IMG/VR virus record: IMGVR_UViG_3300020215_000044
DNA length: 39,156 nucleotides
Strand: one strand, 5' to 3'
DNA from: a virus
The notes beneath the pieces were generated by a model. It was not told where the DNA came from, made no database searches, and saw only the letters and a program-made list of their open reading frames with translations. A program made the position numbers and the translations under genes. Shown here in pieces: positions 5,880 through 29,196 of this stretch. How positions within the stretch are numbered: position 1 is the stretch's first letter; each line of letters opens with the position of its first letter.

Positions 5880-6877
5880 TCTCGAAGCAAATCCGATAAC
5901 CGATTGCCTACGTAGGTGCCAGTCGCGGTGACGGTGCCCCACGGGAGCGCACGCTTCAGGCCGGTCCACAGATCATCGATTGTCTCGTCGATGTTGGACC
6001 GCAGCGCGTACTCACGCATGGCCGATCGATACTGGGCACCTTTGCCGACTGACTCCGCCGCCTGCTCGGCGGCGTGGTTGATCAGGACGCGCAGATTTCC
6101 CAGTTCGCGCCGAATGACCGGCGACAGTCTCCGCGTTTCATCCGCTGAAAGTCGGCTAATGTTGGTCGCGTAGTCACGCAACTCCTCGTAATCGATCGGT
6201 CCCTTATGCGGATCGGTGGCACGTCGCAGGAAGTCGCGCACCACCTTGGGCATCGTGCCGCCACGCTCCGCCATCGTCATGATGCGGAGCGCCGTATTCC
6301 CAGCATTCGCAATATCCACTGGCACCTTGCCAGCCGAGCCCATGACCGCTTGGAAGTTCGCGCCTGCCCGCGCCCGGTTCGGAATCTGTGCTGCGACACC
6401 CCGTAGTCCAGCGTTGCCACCTCCGATGGTGACGCCTGCCTGCGTGGCGCGCATCCCAAGTTGCTGCCACTCGTTCTGCGGGGCAAGCCCCCGCTGATTG
6501 ACAGGATCCTGATAGGGCCGCGACACGTCCAACGCCTCAGGGGCCACCGCGTTCCACCCAGCCCGCGCCAGATCCCCGAGTTGCGCCACCGTGCTCACAC
6601 CTTCGCGTACAGCACCCACCGCCATACCTGGCAGACCTTCAGCGCCGAGAACACGATCGACCACTCCACGGCGTGGCGCCGCACTAATACCTGTCGCGCG
6701 CGTGGCGGCCGTTTGCACGCGGTCAAGCGGCGCGGTGTCATCACGGATCTGGCTGCGATAGACGGGGTACTTTTCAAGCATCGCCGTCACGAGTTGGTCA
6801 TCCGGCACGTTCGCATACACGGGATACTGCGCCTTGATCCGTTGTGCGAACTCTGCGCGCGAGACTTCGCCAGCCAT
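5876..6877 (-). CDS. Internal virion / ejection-type protein (333 aa)
   Basis: Position between head-completion genes and tail fiber, as in P22-like podoviruses. No catalytic motif recognised. Confidence 0.55.
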   Translation of the reverse strand: MAGEVSRAEFAQRIKAQYPVYANVPDDQLVTAMLEKYPVYRSQIRDDTAPLDRVQTAATRATGISAAPRRGVVDRVLGAEGLPGMAVGAVREGVSTVAQLGDLARAGWNAVAPEALDVSRPYQDPVNQRGLAPQNEWQQLGMRATQAGVTIGGGNAGLRGVAAQIPNRARAGANFQAVMGSAGKVPVDIANAGNTALRIMTMAERGGTMPKVVRDFLRRATDPHKGPIDYEELRDYATNISRLSADETRRLSPVIRRELGNLRVLINHAAEQAAESVGKGAQYRSAMREYALRSNIDETIDDLWTGLKRALPWGTVTATGTYVGNRLSDLLRD

Positions 6878-27826: not shown

Positions 27827-28531
27827 TTACCCGTTACGCGGCGTACCTGCGCGCTTCCGCTTCGAGGATGCGCCGGCCGATCCACTCCGCGATTTGCGGG
27901 ACGATCGCGTTTCCGAGCGCGGCCAGTCGAGCATTGTCCAATCCTGGAGATACCCCATTAGCCACTCGACAAATTGCGGGTTCGGCTTCCCACCCAGCAC
28001 GTTGTCGAGCATCAGCCCGCCACCTCTCGAAATCGATCCGAGCCCGCGACCACCGCCGCGCCCGCCCTGCTTCTGACGCGCCTGCGGCGTCGGATACATC
28101 CGCACGTAATCCGTCAGCGTCGTGCCGGCGTGGACGCCAGTCGGAGGCGTTTTGAACCGTCGTGCTGTCGCGTTCGCGGCCGACTTCGCGTCGCCCTTCG
28201 TCGGCGTTGGGATAAGCGACGAGCCAGAGACGGTCACGCCCATGCGGGGCGCCAACGGCCGCAGCCTGAATGCAATCCCACTCCGCGTCATACCCGCACG
28301 CGGCCAAATCTCCGAGAACTCTTCCAAGCCCTCGAGCCAACAGGTCTGCGACGTTCTCCACGACGACGTAGCGCGGTCGAAGTTGGCGAACGAGTCGAGA
28401 CATCTCGAACCAAAGACCGGACTGCTCTCCGTCAAGTCCAGCCTTCGCGCCGGCGCTGCTGATGTCCTGACACGGGAATCCACCGCAGATGACATCGACG
28501 CGCTCAAGCTCGGCTCCAACGGTTCGGACAT
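27827..28531 (-). CDS. Embedded alternative-frame ORF (frame B, 234 aa) with methyltransferase TRD/motif-IX-type sequence
   Basis: SSWRTSQ..EIWPRAGMTRSGIAF..IPTPTKGDAKS..PPTGVHAGTTLTDYV..YPTPQARQ..NPQFVEWLMGYLQDWT. Codon-position GC (hand count) favours this frame over frame A across 27935-28531. The translation status is unknown. Confidence 0.45.
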   Translation of the reverse strand: MSEPLEPSLSASMSSAVDSRVRTSAAPARRLDLTESSPVFGSRCLDSFANFDRATSSWRTSQTCWLEGLEEFSEIWPRAGMTRSGIAFRLRPLAPRMGVTVSGSSLIPTPTKGDAKSAANATARRFKTPPTGVHAGTTLTDYVRMYPTPQARQKQGGRGGGRGLGSISRGGGLMLDNVLGGKPNPQFVEWLMGYLQDWTMLDWPRSETRSSRKSRSGSAGASSKRKRAGTPRNG

Positions 28532-28685
28532 CTTCGTATCGCTTCACCGCCGGCCAGTGCTTCGCCAGCACCGCCCGACAAAATGGGTCGATCTCGACCT
28601 GCCACCGAATCTCAAACCCGGCCCGCTCCAACCCCAAGTCGAAGCCGCCGATCCCCGCAAACAAGCTCCCAACCGTCAGCGCCAC
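27834..28685 (-). CDS. DNA (cytosine-5)-methyltransferase (frame A, GTG start)
   Basis: Ordered motifs FAGIGG (I), GGFPCQDIS (IV), ENV (VI), GAPHGRDRLWLVA (VIII), LGNAIVPQ (X). Confidence 0.85.
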   Translation of the reverse strand: MALTVGSLFAGIGGFDLGLERAGFEIRWQVEIDPFCRAVLAKHWPAVKRYEDVRTVGAELERVDVICGGFPCQDISSAGAKAGLDGEQSGLWFEMSRLVRQLRPRYVVVENVADLLARGLGRVLGDLAACGYDAEWDCIQAAAVGAPHGRDRLWLVAYPNADEGRREVGRERDSTTVQNASDWRPRRHDADGLRADVSDAAGASEAGRARRWSRARIDFERWRADARQRAGWEAEPAICRVANGVSPGLDNARLAALGNAIVPQIAEWIGRRILEAEARRYAA

Positions 28686-28688
28686 GCT

Positions 28689-28928
28689 CTATCTCGTTGC
28701 CCGCCGCGGTAGGGCTGTCGGTCGATCCGCCCATCGTTCGCCAGCGCGCATCACTTTCAAGTTCATGTACGTCACCGTGGATCGCTCCTGCCCCCGTGTC
28801 TGGATCCCGGAGGACATCGATCCACAGCCGTAGCCACACACCAAGCGCAGTCGTCCATCGACGATCCGTGGTAAGCCGTAGGCGTGACCGCCGAAACAGG
28901 CGCAGAGGAGACGACGCAGCACACTCAT
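28689..28928 (-). CDS. Small Cys-rich protein (79 aa)
   Basis: CACFGGH...VCGYGCG. Confidence 0.4.
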   Translation of the reverse strand: MSVLRRLLCACFGGHAYGLPRIVDGRLRLVCGYGCGSMSSGIQTRGQERSTVTYMNLKVMRAGERWADRPTALPRRATR

Positions 28929-28998: not shown

Positions 28999-29196
28999 TC
29001 AGGCGTTCACCGCTCGCGTCTGAATGCGACCGCACCGGCCGCACTCACGCTGCTGATAGACGCGCTGCCCTGTCTCCATCGGCGCTCCGACCGTCTCGCC
29101 GGTAAGGCCACTCACGTATTGCGTGTAGACGATGACGCGCCGAGCAGCCGTCCACGGCCGCCACTGATGCAGCTTCCAAAACGGGCTGCACATCAC
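28999..29196 (-). CDS. Small protein (65 aa) with C-terminal CxxC
   Basis: ATGA overlap with the Dam gene stop. ECGRCG near the C-terminus. Confidence 0.4.
   Translation of the reverse strand: MMCSPFWKLHQWRPWTAARRVIVYTQYVSGLTGETVGAPMETGQRVYQQRECGRCGRIQTRAVNA

Follow-up and report, generated by a model that had tools for sequence, protein, structure and literature searches.

A 39,156-nucleotide (nt) stretch of viral DNA (IMG/VR record IMGVR_UViG_3300020215_000044; referred to here as the window), which is essentially the whole of the ENA contig ERZ27257312 k141_461622 (39,170 nt), carries on its minus strand, at positions 27827-28685, a locus that probably encodes a two-subunit C5-methyltransferase, in which an alpha chain provides the large domain of the enzyme and a beta chain, nested in the +1 frame of the alpha gene, provides the small domain. 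A first-pass annotation made from the sequence alone had pointed to two coding-like open reading frames (ORFs) on this stretch, and both were found with matching coordinates: frame A (alpha; 27834..28685, 283 residues from a GTG start) and frame B (beta; 27827..28531, 234 residues from the ATG at 28531), which is frame A shifted by +1 nt. The claim that frame B lies entirely inside frame A was not borne out, as its stop falls 7 nt beyond that of frame A.

Frame A contains, in order, the C5-methyltransferase motifs that had been picked out by eye. Motif I (FAGIGG, binding of S-adenosylmethionine (AdoMet); 28644..28661) is invariant in alignments A1 and A3, and G68, G69, F70 and C72 are invariant in motif IV (GGFPCQD, with the catalytic cysteine; 28464..28484). 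These are followed by motif VI (ENV; 28350..28358), motif VIII (GAPHGRDRLW; 28224..28253), which aligns to GIPQKRERIY of M.HhaI, and motif X (LGNAIVPQ; 27894..27917), which aligns to FGNSVVINV of M.HhaI and leads into a C-terminal helix. The Pfam family PF00145 (E 9e-43) and TIGR00675 (123 bits, cutoff 100.65) both matched residues 4-164 only; frame A also matched phrog_363 (E 4e-82) and, using phmmer, monomeric C5-methyltransferases (E 5e-18). An AlphaFold2 (AF2) model of alpha built with 101 homologues had a predicted local distance difference test score (pLDDT) of 92-98 for residues 1-160, 39-66 for residues 161-255 and 94-96 for residues 261-283, the motif X segment. Foldseek superimposed this model on M.HhaI and M.HaeIII (E 1e-16; root-mean-square deviation 1.3-1.6 Å over about 163 columns; template modelling (TM) score 0.46 of target). 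Because that match spans roughly half of M.HhaI and M.HaeIII, alpha is best viewed as a large domain, closed by the motif X helix, with a floppy linker in the place of the small domain. The linker (residues 159-234; 27984..28211), whose bases spell the recognition region of beta when read in the other frame, is unconserved in sequence but stop-free; G, R, A, S, E and D are abundant in it, its pLDDT values are 39-58 and disorder is predicted for it. In the model, then, alpha lacks a folded small domain, and frame A does not have one between motifs VIII and X of the same chain as the monomeric enzymes do.

Frame B reads, in order, ..SFANFDRATSSWRTSQ..FSEIWPRAGMTRSG..IPTPTKGD..YPTPQARQ..NPQFVEWLMGYLQDWT... 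Its conserved N-terminal core (SFANFD..SSWRTSQ..FSEIWPRAGMTRSG..PLAP; 28214..28393) is overprinted on motifs VI-VIII of alpha, so that the bases of the ENV motif are those that spell SSWRTSQ in beta. There follow a target-recognition-type region with two PTP motifs (27983..28213; IPTPTKGD at 28190-28213 and YPTPQARQ at 28073-28096), a candidate motif IX, NPQFVEWLMGYLQDWT (27935..27982), identified by conservation in the family and by colinearity with M.HhaI, and a C-terminal tail, MLDWPRSETRSSRKS... (27827..27934), which is the image of alpha motif X. The first-pass annotation had proposed searching each frame separately; in contrast to frame A, which belongs to PF00145, frame B matched no model in Pfam or NCBIfam but did match phrog_1008, annotated 'DNA methyltransferase' (E 8.5e-23; residues 15-156 to positions 41-209 of a profile of 329). 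In the numbering of the window ORF (P0121) the near-invariant residues of the core are W46, R47, T48, Q50, W64, P65, R66 and R71, both PTP motifs (P96, T97, P98 and P135, T136, P137) are near-invariant, and in motif IX at least 90% conservation was seen for L171, N172, P173, V176, W178, L179, M180, G181, P183, W186 and T187. Beta would thus correspond to a small domain, made up of the recognition region and motif IX, plus an additional conserved N-terminal core lying over motifs VI-VIII of alpha. A beta-type ORF was also seen in another setting: in a JGI contig (Ga0467011_0137682; L172 1-1245) an HNH nuclease domain precedes it in the same frame as part of a single ORF (P0218, 330 residues), and in the accompanying alpha motifs I-III are absent and a stop interrupts motif IV (GGFP*PCQD), the remainder of frame A being open. 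Either a nuclease has really been joined to the recognition module of a methyltransferase, or the short contig is a chimera.

The support for two coding frames rose far above chance on comparison of homologues, for which 75 non-redundant viral genes with GC contents of 44-67% were used in both the stop-codon and the synonymous-site analyses. Over frame A codons 99-250 the +1 frame was free of stops in 74/75 homologues, compared with 6.7 expected from synonymous-codon shuffles. In the genes of 44-49% GC the shuffles put 4-8 stops into the +1 frame, and the +2 frame of these genes has 10-15; the mean for the +2 frame was 6.7 stops. Frame A, for its part, is kept open across the recognition region of beta: the interval between motifs VIII and X, which varies from 36 to 142 codons, was open in 75/75 genes, against 10.1 (about 13%) expected from shuffles in which the B protein was kept. 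As the interval was likewise open in 80/80 loci that had been found through frame B, the concern that open frames A had been selected by the way the loci were ascertained is removed.

The first-pass annotation had also proposed looking for suppressed synonymous variation in homologues, and this was found in frame A where frame B is conserved. The entropy at third positions of conserved, four-fold-degenerate frame A residues was 1.74 bits over codons 1-97, 1.03 bits over codons 99-158 (p=2.5e-6) and only 0.23 bits over codons 235-250, and returned to 1.53 bits over codons 253-283. Within codons 235-250 synonymous choice was almost absent (P236 was CCC in 65/65, R240 xGA in 71/71, A242 GCT in 63/63 and G244 GGG in 74/74), and around motif VI V109 was GTG in 56/56 and N111 AAC in 71/75. 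The low-entropy segment, which reads EPAICRVANGVSPGLD in alpha (27936..27983; pLDDT <50), is the frame A image of beta motif IX. In divergent members the frame B motif (xEWxMGFPxGW) persists whereas its frame A image drifts, and the conservation of this part of alpha is for the most part imposed by beta.

A similar picture was obtained on a shorter evolutionary scale from seven close relatives (the window, L001 and L164-L168). In the VIII-X interval the differences per site were 0.397 at the first codon position of frame A, which is the third position of frame B, 0.126 at the second and 0.103 at the third, and the amino acid identity was 0.86 in frame B versus 0.57 in frame A. The flanks, before the frame B core and past motif IX, showed the normal substitution pattern of frame A; past motif IX there were 0.442 differences per site at its third position versus 0.193 at its first, a frame A type of wobble, and over the beta tail the identity was 0.54 in frame B versus 0.70 in frame A. 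No constraint in the beta frame was detected over the tail, and the position of the beta stop varies among homologues. Selection acts on frame B as a protein from about frame A codon 99 to the WT of motif IX, and the tail is free. The same contrast was slight when global pairwise identity of the interval was calculated for 40 divergent loci (0.213 in frame B versus 0.189 in frame A); because the recognition regions diverge this measure was too weak, and it was replaced by the codon-position counts. Purifying selection acts on each of the two frames, in segments of its own, and of the explanations offered by the first-pass annotation it was the overprinted pair, with a catalytic and a recognition subunit, that the stop-free frames and the selection in both frames supported.

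The hand-counted values for GC content at third codon positions (GC3) were reproduced: for frame A, 0.82 upstream of the frame B ATG, 0.61 over 28214-28440, 0.57 over 27935-28213 and 0.76 past the WT motif, and for frame B, 0.78 and 0.75 over 28214-28440 and 27935-28213, respectively. The order GC3>GC1>GC2 claimed for frame B holds over 27935-28213; it fails over 28214-28440, where GC1 (0.48) is lower than GC2 (0.61).

The two-frame layout is not confined to the window. Collections of viruses, metagenomes and genomes yielded about 240 related loci (GC 44-67%) that share it, and the 30 viral loci first translated in all frames had a second open +1 frame without exception, so that the layout is a property of the family and not an error of the window contig. 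The +1 frame of the family reads ..LLANYDPxTSSW(R/K)TSQ..FSETWPRSGMMRNG..PTPTAxD..LNPxWVEWLMGFPxGWT.., and motifs I-VIII and X lie in one frame with the PTP to motif IX segment in the +1 frame, including in gp80 of Mycobacterium phage Che9d, in a prophage of Escherichia coli PT62 and in further metagenome loci. All 80 loci retrieved through frame B alone had this layout. The first-pass annotation had named, as an outcome that would count against its proposal, a frame B without homologues and a closed second frame in relatives of frame A; far from this, 392 homologues of the beta ORF were found (P0121, the window ORF, among them), alongside the almost uniformly stop-free +1 frame described above. 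When a profile of 92 beta ORFs was searched against 1.84 billion cluster representatives (50% identity), 46,651 were matched at E <= 1e-3 and 8,355 at E <= 1e-30; the genomes that contain beta-like ORFs include those of Bdellovibrionota, Verrucomicrobiota, Actinomycetota, Myxococcota, Acidobacteriota, Pseudomonadota and Bacteroidota, and a search of a plasmid collection gave a single distant match, from Leptospira.

These loci bear directly on the idea that the double frame is an artefact, produced by two compensating indels, or that the gene is a decaying pseudogene whose frame A stays open by chance in GC-rich DNA. The window is indeed a single metagenome contig, both junctions at which the coding signal changes frame lie at short runs of A, and at 65% GC an open frame B is not a rare event: with the frame A protein and its codon usage held fixed, frame B was open over 231 codons in 3.7% of synonymous shuffles, and over its conserved part in 21%. 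But the same relation between the frames recurs in the approximately 240 loci, which come from independent samples, cultured phages and bacterial genomes and span 44-67% GC, selection has left its signature in both frames, and a frame A protein identical to that of the window (P0001) is recorded from a JGI sample, although a look-up found no DNA copy of P0001 on record that is independent of the window. We consequently give almost no credence to this explanation, and its assembly-error form, the third of those listed in the first-pass annotation, is excluded by the recurrence of the frame relation. A chimeric A-B-A query, which under compensating indels should retrieve single-frame homologues, matched proteins that carry frame A through the interval.

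A few members of the family have interrupted copies. In one metagenome locus (Ga0181357_1000162; L134) beta ends early, before motif IX (..GHGMGNLNV*), with alpha intact, and in another (L047) there is a single frame B stop within the interval; both may be decayed copies or sequencing errors. In the prophage of E. coli PCP07014 (L169 2300-3061) the gene is annotated as a pseudogene with an internal stop, and the stops of the two frames are two codons apart (..SPLLV*IG.. in frame A and ..CLFE*DL.. in frame B), as if one small lesion had killed both.

A different way of reading the locus, also raised in the first-pass annotation, is that both frames contribute to one 283-residue monomer, A(1-159)-B-A(251-283), made through two programmed frameshifts: a +1 shift past motif VIII that skips base 28208 and a -1 shift past motif IX that re-reads base 27935. 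Such a chain would have the canonical order of motif VIII, target recognition domain, motif IX and motif X, and a one-base shift beside a run of A would suffice at each junction. The chimera matched phrog_116 in one stretch (1-280 to profile positions 206-496), with 220 bits compared with 215 for frame A, and in a HMMER alignment it was colinear with M.HhaI through motifs IX and X (window ..KPNPQFVEWLMGYLQDW..ARLAALGNAIVPQ with M.HhaI ..KLHPRECARVMGYPDSY..AYKQFGNSVVINV), a score that is insignificant by itself; in Pfam the chimera moved the end of the match only from residue 164 to 196, for a gain of 2.6 bits. The double frameshift is nevertheless rejected, because frame A is kept open across the very interval that a shifted ribosome would not read (in 75/75 and 80/80 loci, as above), because frame B is already constrained from about 60 codons upstream of the first junction, and because no slippery site is conserved. 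The absence of a slippery sequence at either junction had been noted before and holds for the family, in which synonymous sites are free at frame A codons 150-156; nor does the window have the zero frame, closed or dispensable downstream, that goes with a conserved slippery site in programmed frameshifting. Frame B is open far upstream and has start codons of its own, in M.EcoHK31I, the nearest precedent (see below), the chains are separate, and we know of no precedent for two efficient shifts per gene being kept across phages of many phyla. A frameshifted monomer is thus highly improbable.

Beta is more likely to be translated separately, by internal initiation. A frame B ATG lies between the last upstream stop and the core in 72/75 genes, most commonly 35 codons before the core (27/75 genes), which in the window is the ATG at 28495. 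Three candidate starts can be recognised in the window. The most upstream ATG (28529..28531) is formed from the alpha codons GAT-GTC (..EDV..) and is an ATG in 7/7 close relatives (MSEP/MSER/MCEP); the second (M13; 28493..28495) is the one chosen by the gene caller of the source assembly; the third is a TTG (L33; 28433..28435) with GAAGG 6 nt upstream, and is homologous to the start site of the low-GC members; a convincing Shine-Dalgarno sequence precedes none of the three. In the three lowest-GC cases (L071, L026 and L019) a frame B stop 15 codons before the core is followed directly by an ATG or GTG, and these codons sit 6-9 nt after AGGAAGGG-like, purine-rich runs that resemble Shine-Dalgarno sequences. 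Other genes begin (G/T)TGAATG, which puts 4 nt between the alpha GTG or TTG and the beta ATG, and in these no frame B stop interrupts beta anywhere in the alpha gene (L009, L024, L027, L030 and L057, L170 at 1898-1910, L173 at about 5995-6010, and copies from E. coli and metagenome-assembled genomes); here one ribosome-binding site could start both subunits by alternative choice of start codon.

The weakness of the ribosome-binding sites in the window gives some room to a variant in which beta is reached by a single +1 frameshift from alpha, between motif IV and frame A codon 99, so that a product with motifs I-IV fused to beta would be made beside full-length alpha. In most genes frame B is open well upstream of the core (median 80 codons), and two database proteins (P0146 and P0231) are one-frame fusions of an N-terminal alpha segment to beta. 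However, those proteins come from single contigs of 1.2-2.8 kb and may reflect sequencing frameshifts; in the low-GC members the frame B stop, only 15 codons before the core, is followed directly by a start codon with a Shine-Dalgarno-like run; synonymous sites upstream of codon 97 are unconstrained, so that no shift site is conserved; and the fused product would be without motifs VI and VIII. We regard this variant as improbable, if slightly less so than the doubly shifted monomer.

If internal initiation is accepted, the two-subunit enzyme could work as follows. Ribosomes starting at the GTG at 28685 would make the 283-residue alpha chain, in which the large domain for AdoMet binding and catalysis (motifs I, IV, VI and VIII) is followed by a probably disordered, unconserved linker of about 75 residues and then by the motif X helix, with which the large domain is complete. 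Other ribosomes, starting inside the alpha gene in the +1 frame at the ATG at 28531, or possibly at the ATG at 28495 or the TTG at 28435, would make beta, whose core, two-PTP recognition region and motif IX would together be the counterpart of the small domain found in monomeric enzymes such as M.HhaI. The two chains would associate on DNA to form the active enzyme, and this would methylate the DNA of the phage and of the lysogen, protecting it against host restriction. Assembly of the chains, activity, a given specificity and the anti-restriction role are thus all put forward conditionally.

There is precedent for such an enzyme. C5-methyltransferases are described as monomers in the vast majority of cases, with two natural two-polypeptide cases listed (PMC3404938). 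M.EcoHK31I of E. coli HK31 (YGGCCR; Lee, Kam & Shaw 1995, as described in PMC2836561 and PMC3404938), is an alpha/beta enzyme in which alpha is reported to have motifs I-VIII and X as well as a predicted recognition domain and beta to have motif IX (PMC2836561, PMC3404938), and the beta gene lies inside that of alpha, wholly in another frame (PMC2836561). Both chains are needed: removing the beta start codons by changes silent in alpha abolished methylation, several internal methionines can serve as the beta start, and the N-terminus of beta is partly dispensable (PMC2836561, PMC3404938). The window resembles this system in having a second ORF nested on the same strand inside alpha, with an overrun of only 7 nt, and in placing motifs I-VIII and X in alpha and motif IX (..LNPxWVEWLMGFPxGWT) in beta. 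Unlike that system, it has the recognition-type region in beta, the corresponding interval of alpha being unconserved and predicted to be disordered; beta has an extra N-terminal core overlapping motifs VI-VIII; and M.EcoHK31I belongs to a restriction-modification system, whereas the window gene is an orphan in a temperate phage. The locus is best read as an enzyme of the M.EcoHK31I kind in which the small domain has moved entirely to the +1 frame.

The precedent cited in the first-pass annotation, M.AquI, holds as an example of a split C5-methyltransferase, but M.EcoHK31I, with its beta wholly in the other frame inside alpha, is the better one. In M.AquI alpha contains motifs I-VIII together with some of the variable region, and beta the rest of the variable region and motifs IX-X (PMC3404938). 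The same type is found in the mycobacteriophage Eagle, where gp78 (frame A) ends just past motif VIII. Its partner gp77, read in the +1 frame, is a single chain in which the recognition region (LPTPVATD..), motif IX (..FSEWMMGWEEGWV..) and motif X (..IIGNGVVVQQ) follow one another; gp77 matched phrog_1008 (E 1e-79). What the window shares with M.AquI and Eagle is a C5-methyltransferase that occurs naturally as two polypeptides, the break falling inside the variable region or where that region begins. In those systems, however, alpha stops soon past motif VIII, motif X is in beta and the annotated overlap is short, whereas in the window motif X stays in the frame of alpha, which reads through about 90 codons of beta coding sequence. 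Eagle gp77 is a relative of the window beta, with a common ..FSxTxPxSGMTRSG..LPTPxATD.. region in the +1 frame relative to gp78. The statement in the first-pass annotation that the PTP and EWLMG motifs are known from long single-frame phage enzymes could only partly be verified: Eagle has them in the separate gp77, and the one hint of single-chain relatives is the weak colinear match to phrog_116. Cluster A mycobacteriophages carry the gp78/gp77 type of split (Eagle, L081 960-2055), and the annotated start of gp77 may be too far downstream, because its frame is open for about 45 codons upstream of it through the conserved ..FSGTFPTSGMTRSG.. segment.

Alpha agrees with the monomers M.HhaI and M.HaeIII in the fold of the large domain and in motifs I, IV, VI, VIII and X, and the DNA order of motif VIII, recognition region, motif IX and motif X is likewise kept; the difference is that the small domain, with the recognition region and motif IX, has been put into the other reading frame. 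Overprinted viral genes provide a further comparison. The locus resembles them in having two coding frames on the same strand, in the suppression of synonymous sites in the older frame and in an apparently new segment, the N-terminal core of beta, laid over the existing motifs VI-VIII. It differs from them because most of beta is the displaced small domain of the same enzyme and not a new protein, and the two products would accordingly be parts of one machine.

A further reading is that both proteins are made but beta has no part in the methyltransferase. Alpha would then be active alone (with relaxed specificity or guided by another factor), and beta, having arisen by overprinting, would bind DNA or counter host defences independently of it. 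Beta does lack a Pfam or NCBIfam family and a detectable solved relative, its N-terminal core has no counterpart in monomeric enzymes, and the HNH fusion with a broken alpha described above suggests that beta can function without alpha. On the other hand, the C-terminal motif of beta fits motif IX of C5-methyltransferases in position and pattern, its homologue in Eagle runs in frame into motif X, and both proteins belong to phrog_1008, annotated as DNA methyltransferase. Furthermore, alpha is without a folded small domain, from which all specific DNA contacts of known C5-methyltransferases are made (PMC3404938), and the alpha chain of M.EcoHK31I is inactive without beta. An independent beta is unlikely on this evidence, but it is the least unlikely of the alternatives.

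Several points weigh against the two-subunit enzyme that we favour. Translation of either product, their association and their activity are deduced from the selection patterns and from M.EcoHK31I; the likeness to M.EcoHK31I is taken from its published description rather than from a sequence comparison, and the literature places the recognition domain of that enzyme in alpha. Taken alone, the window is weak evidence that frame B is coding (p ~0.04), and no convincing Shine-Dalgarno sequence was found in it before the ATG at 28531 or that at 28495. The proposed motif IX of beta is colinear with LHPRECARVMGYPDSY of M.HhaI, but at -2 bits, which is not significant alone; the AF2 model of beta alone was poor (mean pLDDT 60, predicted TM score 0.28); and the beta profile found no solved relative among sequences in the Protein Data Bank (PDB), giving chance matches only (E ~3). 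Because of the poor model and the lack of a solved match, the identification of beta as a small domain rests on its motifs, on colinearity and on Eagle gp77.

The genome in which the locus lies is that of a temperate phage, with an integrase, RecT, HNH, a Dam-type methyltransferase and a P22-type portal. The Dam-type N6-adenine methyltransferase (PF05869; 29193-29660, minus strand) is two genes upstream of the C5 locus on the same strand, and three relatives (L164, L165 and L173) have an N6_N4 methyltransferase near the C5 gene, several orphan methyltransferases being stacked together. Between alpha and the last called gene, which ends at 28999, about 310 nt are without a called gene; this region includes an uncalled ORF of 79 residues (28689..28928, minus strand) whose TAG (28689-28691) is 3 nt before the alpha GTG at 28685.

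Annotation of these loci was compared for the window (27827-28685), L164-L168, L082 987-1745 and L170 1898-2635, and among them no record annotates both proteins of the nested type. The source assembly calls beta only (222 residues from the ATG at 28495), and in the five related contigs L164-L168 beta is again the only one called, whereas in GenBank/RefSeq only alpha is annotated for Che9d gp80 (SEA-PHAGES) and E. coli PT62 WP_230069165.1 (PGAP). Because gene callers report alpha or beta and never both, assignments of methylomes to genes and of specificity look at the wrong protein, or at half an enzyme. Literature searches found no family-wide description of the overlap, which is not proof that none exists.

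These results suggest that a nested two-subunit C5-methyltransferase is common in phages, and the main interest of the finding is how widespread and under-annotated the arrangement appears to be. We think it reasonably likely, though with less assurance than for the locus itself, that nested alpha and beta genes with the whole small domain in the +1 frame are the standard design in a very large clade of C5-methyltransferases, carried by phages and prophages across many bacterial phyla. If so, the N-terminal core of beta would have been created by overprinting motifs VI-VIII, the enzymes would be systematically mis-annotated as short single-chain proteins, with a +1 frame that Pfam, NCBIfam and PGAP do not model, and any prediction of target specificity would need to start from the unannotated frame. 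The overlap, at 150-250 or more codons, would be among the longest and best-supported same-strand overlaps in DNA phages. Long overlaps on one strand for which the statistics are overwhelming and the function can be interpreted are rare among double-stranded DNA phages and prophages; this family provides one, and it is directly testable in E. coli and Mycobacterium systems. M.EcoHK31I has already been used for targeting or swapping methylation specificity (PMC2836561), and a separable recognition subunit of the kind proposed here would be attractive for the same purpose.

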